The notes beneath the pieces were generated by a model, which was not told the DNA's origin, searched no databases, and saw only the letters and a program-made list of their open reading frames with translations. Below, in pieces: positions 50,939-64,000 of a stretch of DNA of 64,000 bases. Every line of letters starts with the position of its first letter. Position 1 is the first letter of the stretch. Origin of the DNA: an uncultured Halanaerobiales bacterium (GTDB lineage: Bacteria > Bacillota > Halanaerobiia > Halanaerobiales > M55B127); the NCBI GenBank assembly GCA_913055675.1, contig CAJXKY010000009.1:47-64046 (forward strand), written 5' to 3'. The position numbers were made by a program, and so were the translations under genes.

Positions 50939-52846
50939 TTAAATATCGATTTCTGTTGCTAAATCAGCATTTTTGAAAATAAATTTCTTTCTTAGCTTAG
51001 AATTAGATCCCATTAATTTTGTAAATACATCATCTGCTTCAATTTCATCATTAATTTCAACTTTTTGAAGTTTCCTTGTTTCAGGGGACATTGTAGTTTC
51101 CCACAACTGATCTGCATTCATTTCACCAAGACCTTTATATCTTTGAATACTAAAATTACCAGCCCCATGTTCTTTTCTGTATTCTTCTAACCCTTGTTCA
51201 TTAAAAATATACTGACTGTTTTTTCGATATGTTACTTTATATAGGGGTGGTCTTGCTAAATAAACATGCCCTTCTTCAATTAATTCTTGCATGTAACGGT
51301 AAAATAGAGTTAAAATTAATGTAGATATATGGGCACCATCTATGTCGGCATCAGTCATTATAATTATTTTTTCATATCTTAAATTACTTAAATCAAAATC
51401 TTCACCTACGCTTGTACCAAGTGCTGTAATTATAGAAGCTACCTCAGTATTGTTTAAAATCTTATCAAGACGTGCTCTTTCTACATTAAGTATTTTCCCT
51501 TTCAATGGCAGAATAGCCTGATTATGACGGTTTCTAGCTTGTTTAGCCGATCCACCAGCTGAGTCTCCCTCAACAATAAATATTTCACTGTTTTCAGCTT
51601 TCTTGCTAGCACAATCTGCTAATTTGCCGGGTAGAGAACTTGAAGAAAGAACTGATTTTCTTTTTGTTAATTCACGAGCTTTTTTAGAGGCTTGCCTTGC
51701 TCTTACTGATTTAAGTGCTTTATTTACAACTGCTTTACCTAATTCAGGGTTTGTATCTAAATAAAGACTTAAATAGTCATAGGCACTTTTTTCTACGATA
51801 CTTCTTAATTCACTATTCCCTAATTTTGATTTAGTCTGTCCTTCAAACTGTGGGTTAGGGAGTTTTACATTAATTACGCCGGTGATACCTTCCCTTACAT
51901 CATGTCCGCTTAGACCATTAACACTTTTAGGTAATAAATTATTCTTTTTTGCAAAATTATTGACAGCTTTTGTTAAAGCTGACTTAAAACCGGTTAAATG
52001 ATATCCACCATCAACAGTATTTATATTATTGGCATAAGAAAATATTCTTTCTGAGTATCCTTGATTGTATTGTATTGCAAATTCTAATTCATATTCATCT
52101 ATTGTATCCTGATTATATATAATTTCTTGATGTAAAAGATCTCTATTTTGGTTAAGATATTCTATAAATGCTTTAATACCACCATCATATTGATAGGTTT
52201 CTTTTTTATCATTTCTTTCATCTTCTAAAACTAAAGTCAAATCTTTATTTAAATATGCCGATTGTTTAAATCTATGTGCTAAAGTTTCAAACTTGAATTT
52301 AGTTGTATCAAAAATTTCACTATCCGGTTTAAATGTAATAACAGTACCGGATTTATCGGTTTTTCCTTCTTTTGAAAGATTATTGACTGGTAATCCTTTT
52401 TTATAGGTCTGAGTATATTTACGACCTTCCCAGTGGGTTTCAATTACTAATTTTTCAGATAAAGCATTTACAACTGAAACACCTACTCCGTGTAATCCAC
52501 CAGCTACTTTGTAACTATTATTATTAAATTTACCGCCAGCATGAAGTGTAGTTAAAACTATCTCTACAGCGGGACGACCTGTATCTTTATGTACATCTGC
52601 GGGAATACCTCTTCCCCAGTCTTCAACACTTACGCTGTTATCTTCATGAACGGTAATCTTAATTTTATCACCAAAATCTGCTAGAAATTCATCGATACTA
52701 TTATCAACTACTTCCCATACAAGATGGTGTAGTCCTTTAATACCGGTTGATCCGATATACATTCCTGGTCTTTTTCGAACTGCTTCTAAACCTTCTAGTA
52801 CTTCAATTTTGTCTGCACTATATCTGTCTTTGTCAAATAAGTCCAC
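50939..52846 (-). CDS. parE: Type IIA topoisomerase B subunit (probably topo IV ParE)
   Basis: LEGLEAVRKRPGMYIGS, GGLHGVG, VEGDSAGG, PLKGK, DADIDG and RYKGLGEM motifs. Partner lacks a GyrA-box and the pair is far from the oriC-linked gyrBA context. Confidence 0.8.
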   Translation of the reverse strand: MDLFDKDRYSADKIEVLEGLEAVRKRPGMYIGSTGIKGLHHLVWEVVDNSIDEFLADFGDKIKITVHEDNSVSVEDWGRGIPADVHKDTGRPAVEIVLTTLHAGGKFNNNSYKVAGGLHGVGVSVVNALSEKLVIETHWEGRKYTQTYKKGLPVNNLSKEGKTDKSGTVITFKPDSEIFDTTKFKFETLAHRFKQSAYLNKDLTLVLEDERNDKKETYQYDGGIKAFIEYLNQNRDLLHQEIIYNQDTIDEYELEFAIQYNQGYSERIFSYANNINTVDGGYHLTGFKSALTKAVNNFAKKNNLLPKSVNGLSGHDVREGITGVINVKLPNPQFEGQTKSKLGNSELRSIVEKSAYDYLSLYLDTNPELGKAVVNKALKSVRARQASKKARELTKRKSVLSSSSLPGKLADCASKKAENSEIFIVEGDSAGGSAKQARNRHNQAILPLKGKILNVERARLDKILNNTEVASIITALGTSVGEDFDLSNLRYEKIIIMTDADIDGAHISTLILTLFYRYMQELIEEGHVYLARPPLYKVTYRKNSQYIFNEQGLEEYRKEHGAGNFSIQRYKGLGEMNADQLWETTMSPETRKLQKVEINDEIEADDVFTKLMGSNSKLRKKFIFKNADLATEIDI

Positions 52847-53035
52847 TTAACATCCACCCTTTCTTATTGTAACCATTATTATTATAACAAACAGTAGGAG
52901 TATTTGCCACCTATTCTTGCAATAATATGACTACATGGTATAATATCAAATAGAAAACAAATTGTGAAATATATTTTTAAAATCGAATTTATTTAATTAT
53001 TATTATTTATACTATACTTTTGAAAGGGGTATATT

Positions 53036-55435
53036 ATGTCTGAAAAAATTTCCTCTATTGCGATCGAAGAAAAAATGAAAGAAGCTTATTTAAACTATTC
53101 ATTGAGTGTTATTGTTTCTCGTGCTCTGCCCGATGTTAGAGATGGTTTAAAACCGGTACATAGAAGGATTCTCTATGCTGCAAAAGAATTAGGATTAACT
53201 TTTGATAAGGACCACAAAAAATCTGCAAGAATTGTTGGTGAAGTATTAGGTAAATACCATCCTCACGGAGATCAAACAGTTTATAATGCAATGGTCAGAA
53301 TGGCCCAGGATTTCAATCAAAGGTATCCTCTAGTTGACGGACACGGTAATTTTGGTTCTGTGGACGGAGATTCACCAGCAGCAATGAGATATACTGAAGC
53401 AAAATTAACCGAACTATCAGACTATCTTTTAAAAGATATTGAAAAAGAAACAGTTAGTTTTAGTGAAAATTTTGATGGTAATTTAAAAGAACCTGATGTT
53501 GTTCCTTCCCGAGTTCCAAATCTTTTAATTAATGGTTCGAGTGGAATTGCAGTCGGGATGAGTACCGATATTCCTCCTCATAATTTAAATGAAGTTGCTG
53601 ATGCTATTATTGCTTTAGTTAAAGATCCAGAACTTTCAATTGACGAAATTATTGATAATCATATATCTGGTCCAGATTTCCCTACTGGTGGGACAATTGT
53701 TGGAAATGAAGGTATTAAAGAAGCATATAAAAAAGGTAAAGGCAAACTTAATGTAAGAGGAAAAACTAAAGTTGAAAATGTCGGTCGACATAAACAACTA
53801 GTTATCACAGAAATACCTTACCAGGTTAATAAATCTAAATTAATTGAAGAAATAGCTAAATATATTAGTAAAGGAAAATTGGAAGAAATAAGGGATTTAC
53901 GCGATGAAACCGATAAAGAAGGGTTACGTATTGTTGTCGAATTGAAACAAGGTGCAGACGTTAATATAGTTCTTAACAGACTATATAAATACACCCGTCT
54001 TCAAAATAGTTATAGAATTAATCTATTAGCCCTAATTGATAATAAACCTGAGGTTATGAGTCTTTTAAAAATCTTGAAGTACTTTATTCGTTTCAGAAAA
54101 AAAGTAATTACCAAAAGAGCTAAATATGAACTTGAACAATTACAATCAAGATTTCATCTTTTAAAAGGTCTAATGAAAGCAATTGACAAATTAGATTTAG
54201 TGATCTCTATAATAAGGAATTCCGAGTCTACAAATGAAGCACATAAAAAATTGGTAGATGAACTAGATATTACCGATGAGCAAGCGAAAGCAATTTTAAA
54301 TATGCAGCTTAGAAGATTGGTCGGAATGGAAATTGAAAAACTCGAAGCTGAAGTTAGTGAATTGAAAGAAAATATAAAGGACCTAAAACAAATATTAGGT
54401 AGTGAAAAGGAATTAAATCAGGTAATTATAGATGAACTCAAGGAAGTAAAAGAAAAATTTGGGGATGAAAGAAGAACTGAAATTATAAGTGATAAAAATA
54501 AAGCAGTAATTACTAAAGAGGATTTAATTAAAGAAAAAGAAGCTGTTATTTCTTATTCATTAAGACAGAACATTAAAAGAAATTCAGATGAAAGCAATAT
54601 GCGTTCTTCTAAAAATGATTATCTCTTAGAGTTAATGAAAGGTAGTTCTTATGATAAGCTACTGTTCTTTACTGAAGGCGGTAAAGTCTACACGTTATCG
54701 ATCCATGATATTGAGGAACATCACGGTTTATCTACTGGAGAACCGCTTAATAAGTATTTAAGAATACCAATGGATGAAACTATTGTAAAAGTGTTATGTT
54801 TAAATGATGATCTTAAAGAAGAATATATAGATATATTAACTGAACAAGGAAAAGTTAAAAGAACGATTGGAGAAGAATATGATTCCAATTATTCTTCTAT
54901 AAATGCAATTAAGTTAGCGGATGGAGATAAAGTAATAGATGTAATTGAAAGTCAGGGAGGTAATGATTTAATTATTGGAACTGATAATGGAAAAACAATA
55001 AGATTTGAAGAGGATTCAGTCAGTAGTACAGGACGTTATACGATGGGAAGTTCTGGTATAAAACTAGATGAAAATAAAGCAATTTTTATGGATAAAGCAG
55101 ATAATTATGATTACTTAGTATCCATTTCATCTGACGGAAAATCTAACAAAATTGCAGTAGATAACTTTACTAAACAAAATAGAAATGGTAAGGGTAGAAA
55201 TACATCAAAATCTGGTAATTATGAGATGTATTCAATGTTCTTAGCTGATAAAGAGGATAAATTGTTACTTGTTACTGAAGAAAATAAAATGATAGAATTA
55301 GAAGTAAGTGATGTCTCTGAAACCCAAATGCCGGGTTATATGTATAAAATCAAAGAATATGATGATTCTGATAATATTAAAAATGTATATAAACTACCTA
55401 AAATAGAAACTAAAAAAGAAGAACTTGAAAAGTAA
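53036..55435 (+). CDS. parC: Type IIA topoisomerase A subunit (probably topo IV ParC)
   Basis: [17 protein letters not shown] and AAMRYTE (catalytic Tyr). First CTD blade lacks the QxRGGKG GyrA-box. Confidence 0.8.
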
Positions 55436-55456: not shown

Positions 55457-55493
55457 GAGGAATATACCTTTAGAAGGTGTATTCCTCTTTTTT
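55457..55493. terminator. Terminator between convergent genes
   Basis: GAGGAATATACCTT-TAG-AAGGTGTATTCCTC followed by T-run. Confidence 0.8.
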
Positions 55494-55699
55494 TAATTAT
55501 CAGTTGATTTTTCATAGAGAAAAATATCTTCAATTTTAACATCAAAATATGTGGCTAATTTAAAGGCTAATGTTAAAGATGGTTCATATCTTTCCTTTTC
55601 TATTGAGATTATAGTTTGACGAGTTACGTCAACTTCTTCAGCTAATTCTTTTTGTGTTAAATCATACCTTGCTCGGAATACCTTCAGATTGTTTGTCAT
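55493..55699 (-). CDS. Small XRE-family HTH regulator
   Basis: LTQKELAEEVDVTRQTIISIEKERYEPSL; ATG 55699. Confidence 0.9.
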   Translation of the reverse strand: MTNNLKVFRARYDLTQKELAEEVDVTRQTIISIEKERYEPSLTLAFKLATYFDVKIEDIFLYEKSTDN

Positions 55700-55709
55700 C
55701 GAAACCCAC

Positions 55710-56090
55710 CTACATTTTTCTTTCAAGATAGGCAAAAAATATTATATATAAAATAAGAATAAACGAAATACTGGTTAGGATAGTGTGAGAGATTATCATT
55801 TGTATCTCTCCACCCGCTATGTATAACCAAAGCCCTATTACTGTACCAAGTAATGAATAGATCACGACAGCATTTCTCATAGCTTTTCTTCCAATTGTTT
55901 TATCCCTTTCGTCTTCAATTACCTCTTCTACTTGAGTCTTAGACCACATTATAAAAGGTACACCTATTCCTACTACAACAAGAGGGATTATTAAACCTCC
56001 AATAAAAATACTAAATCCAAACGAAGCACCTACTATTATAGGAAACATCTTTCCTATTTTTTCATATGTTTCTTTTTTCAAATTGATCAC
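55710..56090 (-). CDS. DUF2178-like membrane protein
   Basis: Four TM segments with central EDERD motif; typical partner of a small XRE HTH. Confidence 0.7.
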   Translation of the reverse strand: MINLKKETYEKIGKMFPIIVGASFGFSIFIGGLIIPLVVVGIGVPFIMWSKTQVEEVIEDERDKTIGRKAMRNAVVIYSLLGTVIGLWLYIAGGEIQMIISHTILTSISFILILYIIFFAYLERKM

Positions 56091-56254: not shown

Positions 56255-57607
56255 TTAATTTCCAGGTTTAAATGCATCAAATAGTACCTGGTGAAATTCT
56301 GTATTATCTAATACATCGTTAAATTCATTAGATTCAGGACCAAAGGCAAAAATTGGTACTGAATTAAGTGTGTGTCCACCAGTTGAAGAGTCTGCTCTAA
56401 TATCAGCAGGTAAGACACCAGCACTATATTCTGATGCTATTACTGAACCAATTTCCCATCCAATCATATATTGATAGTACATATTCCCTTCATTGTTGAT
56501 TATTGATTGGTTAAATTCTTTTGCTTCTTTGTCAGTCATTTCAACATTAGCATATTCAGCAAATACATCTTTAATACTTTCTATTGTCATGCCAGGTTCG
56601 CCTTCTTTTTCTACCATCTGGCCTGCCATGTATTCAGGTGAAACTTCGATATTCATTAAAGCTTCTTTATTGATAGGCTCAGTAACTGAGAAGCCCATTG
56701 TTTCATGGTCTGCAACAACTACGACCATAGTATTTCCATTTTTCTTAGCCCAGTTAACTGCATATTCAACAGTTTCATCAAATTCTAGAGTTTCAGCAAC
56801 AACACCTGGAATGTCTGCAGCATGAGCGGCGTGGTCAATACGAGCCCCTTCACTCATTAAGAAGAAACCATTTTCATTACGGGAAAGAATATTGACAGCT
56901 TTTTTAGTCATTTCTTTTAAGGAAGGTTCTTTTGAATTTAAATCATCACGATCAAGTTTATAGTTCATATAGGAGTCATTGAACAGGCCTAATAATTTAT
57001 TATTTGAAGCCTGTGCATTTGCTAATTCATTTTGATTGGTTACATAATCATAACCCATGTCTTGTGCTTGAGCTACAACATCTTCTTCTTCAGTAAATTC
57101 ATCTGCTCCACCACCAAGGACTACATCTACATCATTATTTAAAATAGCTTTTGCAATTGCTACTTCATTGTCTCTGCTTTTAGCAGATACAGAAAATGCA
57201 GCTGGAGTTGCATCAGTTACTTTGTTTGTACTAATGATACCGGTAGATTTATTTAGAGTTTCTGCATAATCTAAAATAGAATCTAATTCAGCACCATTAG
57301 GTGACATACCTACCATACCATTTTTAGTTTTATGACCAGTAGCCATTGCGGTACCAGCTGCAGCTGAATCTGGAACACCTTGAGTAGAACTTGTCATCAT
57401 CATACCTATATTTGGTAACTGCATCAGTTCTAATTGACCATCTTTATCTTCTGACATGTATCTTGCCATATCGATTTGACCTTGTCCAAGACCATCACCA
57501 ATTAAGACGATCATATTTTTTACTTCTGCTTGTGCTCCTGCTGTTAAAGCAAGTGAAAATGTTAAAAATAATGTTAAGACTAGTAAGCCCTTCTTATTTT
57601 TTAGCAT
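56255..57607 (-). CDS. Secreted alkaline phosphatase (PhoA family)
   Basis: IGDG, DSAAAGTA (catalytic Ser), ATPA, EGARIDHAAH, ADHET and GHT motifs. Confidence 0.93.
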   Translation of the reverse strand: MLKNKKGLLVLTLFLTFSLALTAGAQAEVKNMIVLIGDGLGQGQIDMARYMSEDKDGQLELMQLPNIGMMMTSSTQGVPDSAAAGTAMATGHKTKNGMVGMSPNGAELDSILDYAETLNKSTGIISTNKVTDATPAAFSVSAKSRDNEVAIAKAILNNDVDVVLGGGADEFTEEEDVVAQAQDMGYDYVTNQNELANAQASNNKLLGLFNDSYMNYKLDRDDLNSKEPSLKEMTKKAVNILSRNENGFFLMSEGARIDHAAHAADIPGVVAETLEFDETVEYAVNWAKKNGNTMVVVVADHETMGFSVTEPINKEALMNIEVSPEYMAGQMVEKEGEPGMTIESIKDVFAEYANVEMTDKEAKEFNQSIINNEGNMYYQYMIGWEIGSVIASEYSAGVLPADIRADSSTGGHTLNSVPIFAFGPESNEFNDVLDNTEFHQVLFDAFKPGN

Positions 57608-57777: not shown

Positions 57778-58398
57778 CTATTTTGCAAATATATGGTTTC
57801 CTATTCTAACAGTAACCTCATAACGATCGAAAGCTTCAGGATTTTCTGATTTATCAGGGTTAAAGAAGAACAAGGCACCTTGTGAAGGGTCTTCACCATT
57901 TATGGCTCTTCTTGCAGCTCTGTATGCACTTTGATTAGGAGCTAAGTTGATTTGTCCATTATTAACACTCATAAATTGATTAGATTGATATAAAACACCT
58001 TCAATTGTATTAGGAAATTTTGGACTTTCCATCCTATTAACTATAACTGCTCCCACTGCAACTTGTCCTTCAAAAGATTCTCCTCTAGCTTCTGCATGAA
58101 TTACTTTTGCCAAAAGTTCTACGTTTATAGAATCTATTTCAATATCATAATCTCTACTATTATTATTAAGATCAGTTGTATCAACTTCTGATTCTACTAA
58201 ATTATCATTATCAGTTGTTTCAAATAACATATATAGTACAAAGGCTATACCTAAACCTGTTATAAGGTCATTTTTTTCAAGACCGGCCGCCTCTGTTTTA
58301 GGAGTAAGAATTGGATTGGTAAAAACTACTGAGTTTATCATAACTGCAAATAGAATAATTAATAAGATAGAAGTTGATTTTATTAAAATACTTTTCAT
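57778..58398 (-). CDS. Cell wall hydrolase (SleB/CwlJ Hydrolase_2 family)
   Basis: LAKVIHAEARGE, VAVGAVIVNR, QF, GALFFFNP and IGNHIF motifs; N-terminal signal/TM. Confidence 0.9.
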   Translation of the reverse strand: MKSILIKSTSILLIILFAVMINSVVFTNPILTPKTEAAGLEKNDLITGLGIAFVLYMLFETTDNDNLVESEVDTTDLNNNSRDYDIEIDSINVELLAKVIHAEARGESFEGQVAVGAVIVNRMESPKFPNTIEGVLYQSNQFMSVNNGQINLAPNQSAYRAARRAINGEDPSQGALFFFNPDKSENPEAFDRYEVTVRIGNHIFAK

Positions 58399-58399
58399 A

Positions 58400-59221
58400 T
58401 TAGCTACCCAGTAATAGTGCTAGTAGAACTGCAGCACCTAAATATAATGTAGTTTGGTTTCCTTTAAGTTGACCTTCTTCTTCCTCACTTGTTAATTGAG
58501 TAAGTTGATCATTATTTTCATTTACATTTTGCTGCAATTCTTGTAATCTGCCTTGTAAGGTATTAACTTTAGATTCTAAAGCAGAATTTCTATCTTTCAA
58601 TTCCTGAATATCAGTTCCCTGTAATTCAGTTCTTAATTCTTCTATTTTTTGGTCTTTCTCAGTTAATTTTTGATTTGTAGTAGATAAATCTTCTTCTAAG
58701 GTTTTAACTTTATTACCTAATTCATCTACTCTATTATTTAATTCACTAAGAGTTGCAATTTCATCAAGTATTTGTCTTACTTCTTCTTGTACACTTGAGA
58801 GTTTTTCGTTTGCTTTTCCAATTTCTTCATCTTGTATTACATTTTTTTTCTGAACTTGATTTAAATTTTTAGAAAAAGCATTTTGTTTGTTTGCTATATC
58901 AACTAATTCGTCTCTAAAATCTAAGGATAATTCTCTTAAAGTATCAACATCATCTTCACTCATTTCAGTATCACCAGCTGCTACATCGTTAAGCATTCTT
59001 GCTATAATTTCAGCAAGTTCATATCTGCTAACCTTATTTGTGCCTTTAAAAGTATCATCTTCATATAAGGATAAGTAACCTTTTTCGACTAATAAATTGA
59101 CACTATCGTACGCCCAATGGCTTTCTGGGACATCTTTTATTTCAGCACCTAGGGCAGAAAATGAAAACAGCATTGTAAATATCACAGTAATAACTATGAA
59201 ACTACTATTAAATCTTCTCAT
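58400..59221 (-). CDS. SLH + coiled-coil protein with C-terminal hydrophobic anchor (OmpM/Omp-alpha-like)
   Basis: Signal peptide; DVPESHWAY...TFKG...SRYELA SLH; long heptad repeat; C-terminal LYLGAAVLLALLLGS. Confidence 0.85.
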   Translation of the reverse strand: MRRFNSSFIVITVIFTMLFSFSALGAEIKDVPESHWAYDSVNLLVEKGYLSLYEDDTFKGTNKVSRYELAEIIARMLNDVAAGDTEMSEDDVDTLRELSLDFRDELVDIANKQNAFSKNLNQVQKKNVIQDEEIGKANEKLSSVQEEVRQILDEIATLSELNNRVDELGNKVKTLEEDLSTTNQKLTEKDQKIEELRTELQGTDIQELKDRNSALESKVNTLQGRLQELQQNVNENNDQLTQLTSEEEEGQLKGNQTTLYLGAAVLLALLLGS

Positions 59222-59228
59222 CTTAAAA

Positions 59229-61208
59229 CTATTCCTCCTTTAAATTTTCAAAAATTATATTTATTTCATTATCATTTTGATTAAAAGCTTGGAGCTTACT
59301 AATTTGTAAATTAAGTGGATTATCATTCTTTTTACTAAACTGGATAGTACCTATTACACCACTACTTTCAGAATCAGGAAGAGTTTCATTAAAATTAATT
59401 TTGCCCTTAGAAGTAATGGGGTCTTCCCATAAGATTATTTTATTATTTTGTACAAACATGTCACCTGGGAATATATAATTAATATCATAACCATCCGGAT
59501 TATAATCCAATTCCAAATTAATGTTATTTACTTGGGAAAGATTTTCACCTATTATATTGTAAGTTAGGTAATCTTCACTGAACTCAACTTTTTCTAAATA
59601 AATATATGGTTCTAGTTTTGGAATATCAAGATTCTCCCGTCTGGTTTTACTATAATTATTTAGACCATTTACATTAATGGAATAAGGCAATTCTCCAGTA
59701 ACATTTAAAACTTTTACAGACCAATTTACATTAATACTTTCACCACTTTGAAGATAACCTAAATATTTTTTATTGACCTCTTTTTCAGAAAAGGTTAATC
59801 CAGGTGGTAATGCTAATTCTGTTTTTGCATCAAATAAGGTAGAACCACCAATATTAGTAAATTTTACTTGAAGGTCAAATGGATTTGGTAATATTTTACC
59901 TTTTTCTTTTCTTAAATCTTCATCTAACATAATTTCAGTTTCAATCATTGGCGGACCAACGAAAGTAATATTTCTTTGTACTTCATTAGAATCCGTATTA
60001 TCAGCGGTGACTCGAACTGTATAGGTCATATTACCCGGTATTTCTTCTCCGGAAACTCCCACTTCCCAATTGACTTGGGCAGTATCTTTAGATTCTAAAT
60101 CGCCAATTTCTTTGATAATTTTATTACGGGTCTTGAATTGTTCAGGTAGTTCAATTTCTACTTTAACATTTTCTGCATTGATTTCTGATGTATTTTCAAT
60201 ATAAGCTACTACAGGAAAATATTGATTATTTTCATCAAATGTGAATTCGGCAGGTGAAGTGACACCTAAGGCTAATAATCCTGGTACACTCTTTATTCCA
60301 CCTAAACCGTAATTTGTAACATAAGTTACTTCTTCATTCGGTTTAAGAATTTTTGGTTCCCACATCATAGCTATTGCACTATCAATTTCATATTCACCTT
60401 TTCGAACAAATTCTTCACCAGGATTGAAATCAAAGTTCCAAACCCTATCAGCCAAACTTCCCCAATCAGAAAAGTATACTTTATCGGGGGCAGTGACTCC
60501 AGGACCTTTAAAAGTTCCCTGAGATGTTACAGTAGGATTACTTATACTATCAAAGGCTTGCCAGAAGATGGGAAGTTCATCTTGTAAGTAAAGGTTATCT
60601 GTTGTAACTGCATTTTCTGCAAGTCTAAACGGAGCCCCATCATTTTGGCCTAGCATCGTATCAAGCATAATTCTTAAGCCAACTTCTTTTTCCTGATTAC
60701 TAGTATTAACTAGCCGATATTTGATTTGAGCTGTATCAGATAATCCTGTTGTACTGCTTTTTACTATAGAAAGTATTTGTTCTACTTTTATATCATCTAT
60801 TAGTGAACTGGTATAAATTTGATCATTTCTAACAACAGGTTCTTCAGTTACTTCGCCGTAATTAGCACCTTCACCAGCTCTTCTTCTGGTTGATCCTCCA
60901 AAAACATGATTTACATTATTTACCTTAATGGTTGTATAAGAAGTCCATGGTTTAGGTCTTCCATAAACTAGAGGTTTGTTTTCATCTCCGGTCTCCATGG
61001 GTGCGCCTCCGGTTGTTTCTATTGCAAAACGACCTTTTGCATTATCATCTTGATTTATTACAATTACTATATAATCATTACCCAATCTAAGATTACCATT
61101 ATTATCTACTTCATTAAAAACATCAGCTTGAGCAGACGTAATAAGAGAAGTAAACAATAATGAAATGAGTAAAAATGTAGTTAATATTAATCTTTGTCTT
61201 TTCTTCAA
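59229..61208 (-). CDS. Secreted multi-domain beta-sandwich protein (two Ig/CARDB-like repeats, C-terminal cohesin-like domain)
   Basis: Signal peptide (AQA-D); repeated N...LP...G.L...V.W.V units; cohesin-like LELDYNP...PGD region. Domain calls are by eye. Confidence 0.55.
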   Translation of the reverse strand: MKKRQRLILTTFLLISLLFTSLITSAQADVFNEVDNNGNLRLGNDYIVIVINQDDNAKGRFAIETTGGAPMETGDENKPLVYGRPKPWTSYTTIKVNNVNHVFGGSTRRRAGEGANYGEVTEEPVVRNDQIYTSSLIDDIKVEQILSIVKSSTTGLSDTAQIKYRLVNTSNQEKEVGLRIMLDTMLGQNDGAPFRLAENAVTTDNLYLQDELPIFWQAFDSISNPTVTSQGTFKGPGVTAPDKVYFSDWGSLADRVWNFDFNPGEEFVRKGEYEIDSAIAMMWEPKILKPNEEVTYVTNYGLGGIKSVPGLLALGVTSPAEFTFDENNQYFPVVAYIENTSEINAENVKVEIELPEQFKTRNKIIKEIGDLESKDTAQVNWEVGVSGEEIPGNMTYTVRVTADNTDSNEVQRNITFVGPPMIETEIMLDEDLRKEKGKILPNPFDLQVKFTNIGGSTLFDAKTELALPPGLTFSEKEVNKKYLGYLQSGESINVNWSVKVLNVTGELPYSINVNGLNNYSKTRRENLDIPKLEPYIYLEKVEFSEDYLTYNIIGENLSQVNNINLELDYNPDGYDINYIFPGDMFVQNNKIILWEDPITSKGKINFNETLPDSESSGVIGTIQFSKKNDNPLNLQISKLQAFNQNDNEINIIFENLKEE

Positions 61209-61229
61209 TGATTAAACCTCCCGACTTAA

Positions 61230-62063
61230 TTAGAGAAAGTTTACGCTGCCAATTTCAACATTGACATTGGGATTACCACTATCATCAATATTAAAATCTA
61301 CGGTAACATCTATCTGATATCTTTGCTCATAACTTTTAAATTCCCATCCGTTTTCTATTGTTAACCTTGCATTTCTATCCATACTATCAATATTGCTTGA
61401 ATTAGTTACTATTATATTTTCTAATTCACCATTTTGATTTACTTTAACGCTTAGACCAACTTTTCCACTTTGAGCTTCACTTACCAGATACTTGGGGTAT
61501 ACTGGTTTGGGAGATAAGCCAATTAATTCCCCAGCAGTTGGTGGGGGCGGAGGTGAAGGTTCCGGTTCTGGTTCAGGCTCAGGTTCAGGCTCAGTTTCTT
61601 CTGTTTCCTGCTCTCCCTGGGTTTCTTGTTGTTCGACTTCTATTTCAGTATCGCTTTCTTCACTTGTTATTACTTCCTGTTCTTGATTGGTTTCAGTTTC
61701 TTCCACCTGCTCTTCTGTTTTATTTTCTTGAGCTATTTCTATATTTTGGTCATTAGTTTGTTCTTCTGGTTCCGGTTCTGGTTCAGGCTCAGGTTCAGGT
61801 TCGGGTTCTGGTTTTGGTTCTTCTTGAGGTTCTTCGGGTTCTTCCGGAGCCTCTTGTTCAGGCTCTGGTTCTTGTTGTTCTTGAGTTTCATTTGATTGAG
61901 ATCTATAATCTACATATTGTACATAACCAAAATTATCACCAGAAGCTTCTTCTTCACTAAAACCCTGTAGAAAACCAAAAGGGAAAAAATAAAAAACAAG
62001 AAGGTGGAATATTAATGATATTATTACATACAGGAATAATCTGTTCCTGTCATTATTGATCAT
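61230..62063 (-). CDS. TonB/TolA-like energy transducer
   Basis: N-terminal TM with SxxxH (SLIFH), acidic EP-repeat spacer and TonB_C (PVYP...GKV...SS...DRNA). Confidence 0.88.
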   Translation of the reverse strand: MINNDRNRLFLYVIISLIFHLLVFYFFPFGFLQGFSEEEASGDNFGYVQYVDYRSQSNETQEQQEPEPEQEAPEEPEEPQEEPKPEPEPEPEPEPEPEPEEQTNDQNIEIAQENKTEEQVEETETNQEQEVITSEESDTEIEVEQQETQGEQETEETEPEPEPEPEPEPSPPPPPTAGELIGLSPKPVYPKYLVSEAQSGKVGLSVKVNQNGELENIIVTNSSNIDSMDRNARLTIENGWEFKSYEQRYQIDVTVDFNIDDSGNPNVNVEIGSVNFL

Positions 62064-62074
62064 ACTAACACCAC

Positions 62075-62479
62075 CTAATTTTCTTTCTTTTCTGCTGCTA
62101 AGGCAAGATTATATATTCCAACTTGTCTTACACTATCCATTACTGTGACAACATCACTATATTTAGTTGCACTGTCAGCATTTATAATAACTACTAGATT
62201 ATTATTATTTTGATATTTTTCTTTGGCTAGTTCACTAATTTTTGCAATCGGGAGATTTTCTTCTTGATAGAAAAATTCACCCTCTTTAGTTATATTAACA
62301 ACAAAATTTTCCTGTTTTTGTTCAGTTACAGTAACAGCTTTGGGTAATTGCATTTCCATTCCATATGGATTAGTTCTAAAAGATGTAAACAACATAAAAA
62401 ATACCAATAAGAAAAAGATAACATCAATCATTGGAATGATGTTTATTGATGTTTTCTTTTTATGTGTAGGTTTGAACAT
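62075..62479 (-). CDS. exbD: ExbD/TolR
   Basis: INIIPMIDVIFFLLVFFM (conserved Asp), LP and ADS...Y..V..VMD motifs; ATG 62479. Confidence 0.92.
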   Translation of the reverse strand: MFKPTHKKKTSINIIPMIDVIFFLLVFFMLFTSFRTNPYGMEMQLPKAVTVTEQKQENFVVNITKEGEFFYQEENLPIAKISELAKEKYQNNNNLVVIINADSATKYSDVVTVMDSVRQVGIYNLALAAEKKEN

Positions 62480-63104
62480 CTCTTTCACTCCTGTCTGTAA
62501 TAACATCCATAATATCAATCATGCTGAGGTTCATTTCATGTGATTTTTCCTCAACCTTATTAATATAGTAGGAATAAAAGATTGCTGTAGGGATTGCAAT
62601 AATTAGTCCCATAGCTGTACTTATTAAAGCAGAAGCTATCCCTGAACTAATTTGAGCAGGATTAGCTGCACCTGCAGCTGTACCTAATATATTGAAACTG
62701 CTGATAATTCCCAGTACAGTACCTAATAAACCCAATAAAGGTGAGATCATTGCAATTACATCTAGTACTGGTAAATGTTTTTCCATTTTCTTGATTTCAT
62801 CTTCTCCAACGGCCTGTAAGACTTCTCTAATACGATCCGGGTCTTCTTCATAGTGAGAAAGTGCTGTTGAAAGCAATTTAGCATTTGGACCTTTTTCTCC
62901 TTTAAGTTCATTTAAGGCTCCAATAATATCATCATTTTCAACTTTCAATTCAATTCTTTTTAATAGTCTTAAACTGTTATCTTTTCTTCTAATAAAAAAC
63001 ACAGCTTTTTCTATTATTACAGCTAAACTGAAAATTGAAGTGATAATAAGAGGAATTGCCATTGGTCCTCCAAGTGAAATAAAATTATAAATTTGAGTTA
63101 ACAT
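62460..63104 (-). CDS. exbB: ExbB/TolQ/MotA proton channel
   Basis: PLLGLLGTVLGI and GIASALISTAMGL motifs. Confidence 0.92.
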   Translation of the reverse strand: MLTQIYNFISLGGPMAIPLIITSIFSLAVIIEKAVFFIRRKDNSLRLLKRIELKVENDDIIGALNELKGEKGPNAKLLSTALSHYEEDPDRIREVLQAVGEDEIKKMEKHLPVLDVIAMISPLLGLLGTVLGIISSFNILGTAAGAANPAQISSGIASALISTAMGLIIAIPTAIFYSYYINKVEEKSHEMNLSMIDIMDVITDRSERDVQTYT

Positions 63105-63173: not shown

Positions 63174-64000
63174 TTAAGATGATAAATCCTTCTTAAATGA
63201 GTTATCATCTATAAGTATTTTGTGCTTTTTTAACTTTTCAAGATATCTGTAATCTAAGCATATTTTACCAAGTCTTAACCCTTCTTTGTTTTTAGGTCCA
63301 TGGCAGTCGGAACCACCGGTAATTAACAAAGAATTATCTTTTGCTAATTTTTTGTAATTTTCAATTTGCTTTTTTGTATGTTCAAGGTAATATACTTCTA
63401 AACCTTTAATGCCATAATTAATAATTTGATGTACAGTATTATCATCTTCTATTAGTCCCGGGTGGGCTATTACTGGAATTCCATTAGCTTTTTTAATAAT
63501 ATCGATGGCTTCAAAAGGGGTTATCTTATTTCTACTTACATAGGCTGGCTGACCACTCCCAATATATTTATCAAAAACTTTTTCCCAAGACTTAACATAT
63601 CCTTTTTTTGTAAGCAACCTAGCAATATGTCCTCTACCTAAAATATTATTAGCACAAATTTCCTTTATTTCTTCTAATGATATATTAAAATTATAGAGTT
63701 CTTTTAACAAGTCTATCATTTTTTCGATTCTTTCTCTACGTTCTTTTTTAATTTTATCTAATAAATTTAATAGTTCTTTATTTTGATAGTCGATAAAATA
63801 ACCTAGTATATGGACTTTTGTTTTGTCTAATAAAGTATTAAATTCAACTCCCGGAATAACTTCTAAATTATTTTTTCGGCCTGCTTTTAAACTTTTTTTT
63901 ATTCCGGCAATAGTGTCATGATCAGTTACAGCAATAGCTGAATATCCTAGTTCTTTAGCTTTTTTAACTAAATCTTCTGGGGTATATGATCCATCAGAAT
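63174..64000 (-). CDS. PHP-domain phosphoesterase (TrpH/YciV-like), 5' end beyond window
   Basis: Frame is open to the window edge: SDGSYTP, AVTDHD, PGVEL, HILGY, AHP and GGSDCHG. Confidence 0.9.
   Translation of the reverse strand, partial: SDGSYTPEDLVKKAKELGYSAIAVTDHDTIAGIKKSLKAGRKNNLEVIPGVEFNTLLDKTKVHILGYFIDYQNKELLNLLDKIKKERRERIEKMIDLLKELYNFNISLEEIKEICANNILGRGHIARLLTKKGYVKSWEKVFDKYIGSGQPAYVSRNKITPFEAIDIIKKANGIPVIAHPGLIEDDNTVHQIINYGIKGLEVYYLEHTKKQIENYKKLAKDNSLLITGGSDCHGPKNKEGLRLGKICLDYRYLEKLKKHKILIDDNSFKKDLSS

Follow-up and report, generated by a model that had tools for sequence, protein, structure and literature searches.

What a TonB-type motor may serve in a genome where no TonB-dependent receptor is detected is the question raised by a cluster of six genes at positions 57778-63104 of the window analysed here (the whole stretch of 64,000 nucleotides, nt, taken from contig CAJXKY010000009.1 of assembly GCA_913055675.1, an uncultured Halanaerobiales bacterium). 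The cluster encodes an ExbB/ExbD pair, a TonB-like force transducer, an exported protein of 659 amino acids (aa; hereafter P659), an SLH-bearing tether and a cell-wall hydrolase. Comparative genomics and one controlled structural model give good support to the reading of a TonB motor that has no receptor and is coupled to a periplasmic adaptor and to the SLH tether. This module may be a hitherto undescribed machine for the upkeep of the outer membrane in Firmicutes with two membranes.

The six co-oriented open reading frames (ORFs) are tightly spaced on the minus strand, and their places were borne out on re-reading. The three motor genes are an exbB/tolQ-family gene for a proton-channel subunit (62460-63104, 214 aa; Pfam MotA_ExbB, E 5.6e-33), an exbD/tolR-family gene (62075-62518, 147 aa from its listed TTG start; Pfam ExbD, E 1e-30) and the gene of the TonB-like transducer (61230-62063, 277 aa; Pfam TonB_C on residues 185-258, E 1.3e-11). 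They are followed by the P659 gene (59229-61208), the gene of an Omp-alpha-like SLH/coiled-coil tether (58400-59221, 273 aa; Pfam SLH, E 7.3e-9, together with many coiled-coil families) and that of a Hydrolase_2 (SleB/CwlJ-family) cell-wall hydrolase (57778-58398, 206 aa; Pfam Hydrolase_2, E 2.4e-34, profile positions 1-100 of 100). For exbD, the in-frame ATG at 62479, which would give a protein of 134 aa, is a likelier start than the TTG; depending on this choice exbB and exbD overlap by 20-59 nt, and the gaps from exbD to the hydrolase gene are of 11, 21, 7 and 1 nt. Between 56000 and 64000 the minus strand has a single terminator-like site, a hairpin directly after the last gene (57754 to 57718; 16-pair stem, 5-nt loop, T-rich tail). 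The initial annotation had described six co-oriented genes with small gaps and a single terminator at the end, with which the ORF coordinates, the Pfam matches and the hairpin scan agree. No protein of the cluster reaches an equivalog cut-off of NCBIfam.

Conservation of this order was followed at two depths, and a relative was considered as of good quality when its completeness was 90% or more and its contamination 5% or less. Of 41 relatives, belonging to 8 families of the order, 37 gave a P659 match, among them all 33 good-quality ones; the relatives without a match (G002, G012, G027 and G031) are each 62-93% complete. Twenty loci from 20 genomes, representing all 8 families of Halanaerobiales, were compared (L029-L048): 18 hold all six genes in the order of the window, and the other 2 agree up to the contig end. 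The gyrA/gyrB region (window 50939-55435) adjoins the cluster in 19 of these 20 loci and is its conserved chromosomal address in the order. At the larger depth, a phylum sample of 151 genomes (Bacillota other than Negativicutes, and no other phyla) contained 38 genomes with a P659 match, from which 20 loci were examined (2 from the sister order and 18 from other classes), their genes being identified by hidden Markov models (HMMs) built from the proteins of the order. The sequence exbB-exbD-tonB-P659-SLH is complete and in order in 17 of these 20 loci; 2 are cut by contig ends, and at locus L060 a 0.9-kb gap stands in place of TonB, with no TonB detectable by HMM. At the distant loci P659 is only 33-47% identical, and from one locus to another the flanking genes have nothing in common, which argues that the five-gene order is kept by selection and not by recent common descent. 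It is thus strongly indicated that in outer-membrane Firmicutes exbB, exbD and the tonB-like gene are passed on together with the P659 and SLH genes as one unit. The best 80 of 427 P659 relatives are from Halanaerobiales, Limnochordia or unclassified Bacillota, the close ones including Halanaerobium, Halothermothrix and Orenia.

The link to an outer membrane was assessed in the same 151 genomes using BamA (Omp85) as the marker, and P659 was considered as full-length when its ORF measured 639-751 aa and matched at E <=1e-90. Full-length P659 occurs in 32 of the 36 BamA-positive genomes and in none of the 115 BamA-negative ones, 6 of which have partial matches in proteins of other sizes. The comparison of diderms with monoderms that the initial annotation had proposed as a check therefore came out in its favour, full-length P659 being found in BamA-positive genomes alone.

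A second line of evidence concerns receptors. In the host genome (G000; 2.41 Mb in 110 contigs, 79% complete, with the window on contig 9), no match to the Plug domain or to the TonB-dependent-receptor barrel was found, and the only TonB_C domain is that of the cluster. Two MotA_ExbB genes are present, the second of which is considered MotAB-like because it adjoins an OmpA-domain gene. In the genus of the window, 1 of 12 genomes gave a receptor match, whose reading frame of 918 aa is atypical and whose genome is 5% contaminated; of 101 genomes of the class, 35 have a Plug domain and 36 a receptor barrel (31 and 32, respectively, of the 69 good-quality ones). Motor copies were examined in five relatives, four assembled in one contig each (G018, G020, G028 and G033) and one in 6 contigs (G003, 94% complete). 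G018 and G003, in which neither Plug nor barrel was matched, have one TonB_C and one ExbD each, both belonging to the cluster; the receptor-bearing G020 and G033 have two of each and G028 three. Three of the four extra TonB/ExbD copies lie within 1-3 kb of a receptor gene (one such locus reads BtuB-like receptor, TonB, ExbB, ExbD), and the third copy of G028 lies tens of kb from the nearest one. No barrel gene was found in or adjoining the cluster among 40 loci (the 20 of the order and the 20 others). Since receptor-less genomes hold the cluster motor alone and the extra copies are mostly on the receptor side, the cluster motor appears to be a separate paralogue kept without receptors. Its description as receptor-less is therefore upheld by the host genome and by relatives that keep the cluster copy alone, and the contrary possibility, that this TonB serves only distant nutrient receptors, is itself refuted for the receptor-less genomes.

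Trees of the stator subunits were compared with this picture. In the ExbB tree, 37 cluster-linked sequences are split from 4 non-cluster paralogues with a branch support of 96/80, in a topology with a midpoint root, long branches and four outsiders only; in a quick ExbD tree the non-cluster paralogue L160 falls in an unresolved polytomy with the cluster ExbD sequences, group support being weak. Model scores were also considered as a sign of likeness to Tol: the cluster ExbB obtains 107 bits with the NCBIfam TolQ model and 74 bits with the ExbB model, both under the equivalog cut-off, and the TolQ/TolR models outscore the ExbB/ExbD models on the stator, yet far under their own cut-offs. This sign was rejected, as the receptor-linked paralogues score alike.

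The motor proteins have the expected features, and it is strongly indicated that ExbB and ExbD form a proton-driven stator. The membrane helix of ExbD holds an Asp within '...IPMIDVIFF...', which we take to be the proton-relay Asp of ExbD/TolR. In the TonB-like protein, the N-terminal helix carries Ser16 and His20, presumably the motor-contact motif of TonB and TolA; the long linker that comes next is acidic and rich in Pro, and a poly-Pro run precedes the TonB_C domain, which has Tyr-Pro-Lys at its start. The alignment of 33 cluster TonBs shows H20 and K191 unchanged throughout, with conservation of 90% or more at S16 and P190. Within the linker, which is otherwise variable, a short strand-like and acidic motif at about residues 128-142 is conserved across classes; it makes no contact with P659 in the complex model described below, and may be a contact of the stator (ExbD).

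P659 was described in the initial annotation as a secreted beta protein. An export signal and an AlphaFold2 model that is all-beta, with a mean predicted local distance difference test (pLDDT) of 90.6, agree with this wording, which is incomplete in that the C-terminal end is a cohesin module. Four parts follow one another: the signal peptide, a galactose-mutarotase-like beta-supersandwich (residues 29-325, window 60234-61124), an immunoglobulin-like (Ig-like) stretch and the cohesin module (residues 535-647, window 59268-59606). The sole Pfam match is an NPCBM_assoc/DUF11 Ig-type stretch at residues 334-409. The cohesin module was recognised by comparing a profile of the family with solved cohesins: profile positions 535-646 match ScaB (3l8q) at E 2.5e-12, and 24 cohesin/scaffoldin entries are matched at E up to 0.1. 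The N-terminal domain (N-domain, about 300 residues) is by far the best conserved: over 36 sequences the mean column identity is 62% and 39 positions are invariant. Its model obtained alone has a pLDDT of 87. Foldseek matches of the N-domain are the N-domains of GH94, GH116 and GH38, a mutarotase-like enzyme and the P1 domain of YidC (TM-score normalised to the query, TMq, 0.43-0.57; E from 2e-7), and judging by these models the domain is of a carbohydrate-binding type of fold with no sign of a catalytic domain. The whole chain gave generic Ig-stack matches alone (e.g. integrins, TM-score about 0.2). Protein Atlas gave, as leads only, clusters without names at 0.93-0.94 and one cluster named after a cellulosome anchor at 0.89.

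The contact between the motor and P659 was modelled using P659 residues 29-659 and TonB residues 120-277, with custom alignments, 3 runs and 3 controls. The complex obtained an ipSAE (interaction prediction score from aligned errors) of 0.74 (0.74, 0.70 and 0.75 in the runs) against 0.00 for the best control. In a benchmark, 58 of 80 solved complexes reached that mark, as did 2 of 110 mismatched pairs; given the custom alignments, such counts apply only roughly. At least 63% of the contacts are common to the runs, and the pLDDT of the partners is at least 72. This multimer model, which the initial annotation had put forward as a check, supports binding of P659 by the TonB-like protein, short of showing it. 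On the side of P659 all contacts are in the N-domain (residues 54-56, 83-86, 88-89, 107-110, 249-250, 269-273 and 276); on the side of TonB they involve residues 188-191 (which include the Tyr-Pro-Lys motif, YPK), 194-196, 230-238 and 262-265. The model thus indicates that the C-terminal domain of TonB docks on the supersandwich, domain to domain, around Tyr-Pro-Lys, and these contacts do not show the strand pairing of a classical TonB box.

Conservation bears on the P659 side of this interface: conservation of 90% or more is seen at 10 of the 21 contact residues, compared with 81 of the 297 positions in the domain as a whole (p = 0.03). In 3 BamA-negative genomes the N-domain heads giant proteins (of 2028 aa, of 2248 aa, and one split into 297 + 1338 aa), near which no ExbB, ExbD or TonB was found; the 2248-aa protein (L163) joins the N-domain and C-terminal SLH domains in a single chain. 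Outside the predicted interface these three TonB-less paralogues keep 27 of the 34 invariant residues, but of the 10 conserved contact residues they retain only 3, 3 and 4, respectively (Fisher p = 0.006, 0.006 and 0.025); two of them are without the 107-110 loop. Since the TonB-less paralogues have lost the predicted contact surface and kept the core, this surface appears to be specific to the TonB-linked subfamily. Compared in this way, the sequences suggest that the deeper conserved core of the N-domain, which may be a glycan site, is older than the TonB contact surface.

In the SLH protein, the cleavage site of a signal peptide is immediately followed by a single SLH domain; then come a coiled coil and, at the C-terminal end, a hydrophobic helix. 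This four-part layout was found in 41 of 41 homologues. The earlier description of the protein as an SLH-coiled-coil anchor is correct as to the SLH domain and the coiled coil and had overlooked the C-terminal helix. As judged from its sequence, the layout is that of Omp-alpha. The Thermotoga Omp-alpha/OmpA1 protein is described, in the parts of the sources used here, as a rod tying the outer sheath to the wall, with an SLH domain, a coiled coil and a hydrophobic C-terminus (PMC3387000; Witwinowski preprint). The host genome has two SLH proteins, and in the genus of the window there is one further SLH protein besides that of the cluster. In the host this is a 938-aa protein (contig 41, L161:554-3370, minus strand) with an N-terminal SLH domain and a weak C-terminal signal of an outer-membrane-protein beta-barrel, which is probably an unusually long OmpM-like tether of this lineage. 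In other classes a second, shorter Omp-alpha-like SLH gene was observed upstream of exbB at three loci (L058:4305-4898, L062:4132-4737 and L064:2130-2864).

At each of the 20 loci of the order the hydrolase gene comes next after the SLH gene, at a distance of 4-70 nt; in the sister order the two genes are separated by ndk (L049:9942-10352 and L050:9696-10106). No wall hydrolase was found after the SLH gene in the 18 loci of other classes, where the genes in this place are ndk, spoVA, cheW, or those of a sugar kinase, a MiaB-like enzyme, yceD and transporters. The linkage of the three downstream genes to exbBD-tonB, which the initial annotation had emphasised, hence holds across the sampled classes of diderm Firmicutes for P659 and for the SLH protein, and fails for the hydrolase, which stands outside the conserved core as a class-specific accessory. 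The name "SleB-type" stands in part: the protein belongs to the Hydrolase_2 family, but it scores 154 bits (E 3.5e-45) with the SleB model, whose cut-off is 236.5, and it is without the N-terminal wall-binding domain of SleB. Examined by eye, the three Hydrolase_2 proteins of the host genome include one with a canonical SleB-type N-terminal wall-binding region and one with LysM-like repeats, the cluster protein having hydrophobic N-terminal segments only. SpoIVA was not found in 28 of 41 relatives, nor in any of the 13 genomes of the window genus (G000-G012); 11 of the 20 hydrolase-bearing loci of the order are from SpoIVA-less genomes, and P659 is also kept in SpoIVA-less genomes of other classes. 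The class-limited linkage and the SpoIVA-less hosts argue that the hydrolase is a vegetative, lineage-specific addition and not a spore enzyme. The window genus gives the impression of an asporogenous lineage in which 'spore' hydrolase families persist.

Among known systems, Tol-Pal (TolQ-TolR-TolA-TolB-Pal-CpoB in Gracilicutes) is the closest in plan. It keeps the outer membrane of Gracilicutes attached and constricts it at division. Common to both are a 5:2-type stator of the MotA/ExbB family, a transducer of the TonB/TolA type, then a soluble periplasmic protein (here P659, predicted to bind the C-terminus of the transducer) and then a tether that binds the wall, and the cluster likewise occurs where an outer membrane exists. 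In contrast to TolB, P659 has no beta-propeller and no TolB_N domain, and the tether consists of SLH, coiled coil and helix whereas Pal is an OmpA-domain lipoprotein. TolB_N was not found in any of 5 genomes (the host and 4 relatives), and no Pal candidate was seen among their OmpA-domain proteins (one of 253-292 aa in each of the 4 relatives, and three matches in the host, one of which is considered MotB-like because it lies about 550 nt from the MotA gene). One of the host matches (contig 27, 9414-9638) lies in a 103-aa frame interrupted by an in-frame TAG and may be a broken gene or a contig-edge artefact. These results agree with the initial annotation, which had seen no TolB propeller and no Pal lipoprotein in the operon or window, and its parallel with tolQRAB-pal in non-homologous parts is supported by the modelled TonB contact, which puts P659 in the position of TolB, with supersandwich, Ig-like and cohesin parts instead of a propeller.

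Other systems are alike in part. The complete set of an ordinary Ton system is present (MotA_ExbB, ExbD, the Ser/His helix, the Pro-rich linker and TonB_C), but without a Plug/barrel partner, the predicted partner being soluble, multidomain and contacted domain to domain. The Omp-alpha (OmpA1)/Omp-beta set of Thermotogae resembles the cluster in the layout of the SLH protein; here, however, no porin gene adjoins and the gene is tied to a TonB motor, whereas the T. maritima genome, used as a control, gave no ExbD match and no TonB_C match. OmpM of diderm Terrabacteria has an SLH head and a coiled-coil stalk in common with the SLH protein of the cluster, which is without the beta-barrel. The vWA transducers and PorE of Williams-Jones et al. 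2025 embody the same idea, a 5:2 motor with a non-canonical periplasmic effector where classical Tol-Pal is missing, in other proteins and other lineages. Cellulosome-anchoring scaffoldins combine cohesin and SLH modules as well, but here these are on two proteins, tied to a motor and found in outer-membrane genomes only.

In the published record, the 2025 survey of force transducers (PMC12204202) confines Tol-Pal to Gracilicutes, expects further systems that stabilise the outer membrane, and reports Ton systems among diderm Firmicutes in Negativicutes only; SLH is not mentioned in it. That outer-membrane Terrabacteria are without Tol-Pal is stated in parts of the same paper and of the Witwinowski preprint. 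The 2009 genome paper of H. orenii, as far as its relevant section goes, noted ExbB, ExbD and a putative TonB together with no receptor, and suggested 'a different function' (PMC2626281). Full-text literature searches, which did not cover supplementary tables, found no description of the module.

Taken together, these data make moderately probable a dedicated force-transduction module of the TonB type, independent of TonB-dependent receptors, in which the tether is remodelled as follows. The ExbB/ExbD stator, driven by the proton-motive force, would power the TonB-like arm, the C-terminal domain of which would dock on the N-terminal supersandwich of P659. P659 would in turn engage the SLH rod through its cohesin or Ig-like domains, the head of the rod binding the wall and its C-terminal helix lying in a membrane (the outer one, if the protein is Omp-alpha-like). 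Strokes of the motor on P659 would remodel or reposition the tether, as TolQRA acts on TolB to mobilise Pal, and in Halanaerobiia a membrane-anchored SleB/CwlJ-family hydrolase would have been added outside the ancestral core, opening the wall locally. We infer from this arrangement a function in remodelling of the outer membrane and peptidoglycan or in division, including the contact between P659 and the SLH protein. That the module is in addition a functional counterpart of Tol-Pal, with P659 in the role of TolB, the Omp-alpha-like rod in that of Pal or Lpp, tethers moved to the division site and, in Halanaerobiia, a lytic enzyme coupled, is put forward tentatively, as a possibility we rather doubt.

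Several observations weigh against the remodelling module. P659 is missing in 4 of the 36 BamA-positive genomes (G070, G116 and G156, which are of one family, and G074), so an outer membrane can persist without it. SLH rods as short as 210 aa and as long as 869 aa are not what one would expect of a spacer for a periplasm of fixed width. On the side of TonB, conserved residues are not over-represented among the contacts (3 of 16, compared with 18 of 103; p = 0.56), and we assume the YPK motif to be general to TonB domains. The three TonB-less paralogues, and likewise the sampled relatives, are not independent observations. As most core invariants of the N-domain persist in giant TonB-less surface proteins of BamA-negative genomes, the primary activity of this domain may be glycan binding. 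A canonical dockerin, which was looked for as Dockerin_1, was not found in 4 of 5 genomes, the host included.

Four other explanations were weighed, two of which start from the domains of P659. In an uptake of glycan nutrients, TonB would energise an unrecognised outer-membrane channel to which P659 hands over carbohydrate; energised import is the textbook role of TonB, the N-domain has the fold of the GH94, GH116 and GH38 N-domains and of mutarotase, and its deepest invariants are common to TonB-less surface proteins. We nevertheless consider this unlikely, because no barrel gene lies in or beside the cluster at any of the 40 loci, true receptors mostly come with their own TonB/ExbBD, and the partner is a wall-binding rod and no transporter; moreover, presence in every good-quality relative whatever its niche, and next to gyrA in nearly all loci of the order, is atypical for a substrate-specific locus. 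Slightly less likely still is an anchoring of the surface-scaffold or S-layer type, in which the cohesin of P659 and the SLH protein would form a wall scaffold and the motor would aid its export or assembly. Cellulosome anchoring proteins are built from cohesin and SLH modules, P659 has its cohesin match, and L163, from a BamA-negative genome, joins a P659-type N-domain and SLH domains in one protein. The dockerin result just given counts against a scaffold too, however, and full-length P659 is confined to BamA-positive genomes; in the operon subfamily the TonB-contact residues are conserved, which argues for steady TonB coupling over passive anchoring.

The remaining two start from the hydrolase and from the chromosomal position. 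The best NCBIfam match of the hydrolase is the model of a spore cortex-lytic enzyme, and it could be supposed that this enzyme lyses the cortex while the motor serves membrane remodelling in diderm sporulators; the relevant part of PMC13018214 describes diderm Firmicutes as remodelling their membranes during sporulation. Against this stand the lack of detectable SpoIVA in most relatives, in the whole genus and in over half of the hydrolase loci, a score under the SleB cut-off in a protein without the wall-binding domain (a paralogue elsewhere in the genome having the canonical layout), and the absence of the hydrolase from the module outside the class. The sporulation link is therefore largely refuted by the distribution of SpoIVA, the sub-cut-off score and the class-limited linkage, and this explanation appears highly improbable. 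To the same slight degree, the cluster might be a conserved neighbourhood without coupling, namely an ordinary Ton system beside envelope genes near the replication-origin region; the adjoining gyrA/gyrB genes belong to a region of generally stable order, but the order of the module is kept across classes at low P659 identity with entirely different flanks, its genes are 1-21 nt apart, and the complex model passes with its controls at zero. The tether-remodelling module thus remains the explanation that we favour.

If it holds, the module provides testable parts (a motor, a predicted TonB-binding domain whose contact residues can be named, and a wall tether) for the question of how outer-membrane processes apart from receptor transport are powered in Terrabacteria, and the lineages that carry it are central to the debate on the loss of the outer membrane in monoderms. 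The complex model would also mean that a TonB_C domain can serve a soluble, non-receptor partner. Should the module be a counterpart of Tol-Pal, it would represent an independent, non-homologous solution to the same envelope problem. The proposed partners would also be the missing half of the 'different function' guessed for ExbB/ExbD/TonB of H. orenii in the section of PMC2626281 cited above.

Two irregular loci were met in the comparison of gene order. In G032 the cluster exbB is matched as two pieces (L047:9217-9784, residues 1-152 and 178-213), which suggests a frameshift or an assembly error. An apparent 967-aa fusion of TonB and P659 in L028 was rejected, as a run of masked bases joins two genes and there is no true fusion.

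The neighbours of the cluster in the window are as follows. Upstream of exbB, at a distance of 69 nt and on the same strand, a gene encodes a PHP-domain phosphoesterase (63174-63998, minus strand); since the same neighbour is present in just 5 of the 20 loci of the order, it is considered as outside the conserved module. Downstream, a gene for a secreted alkaline phosphatase (56255-57607, minus strand; Pfam E 9e-83) lies between the terminator of the cluster and a small gene pair (55493-56090, minus strand), in which the gene of an 80-aa HTH-type protein overlaps that of a 126-aa membrane protein. At the same-genus locus L029, where the pair is 67% identical, the cluster runs straight into it with no phosphatase between, so that the alkaline phosphatase gene looks like an insertion in the genome of the window.

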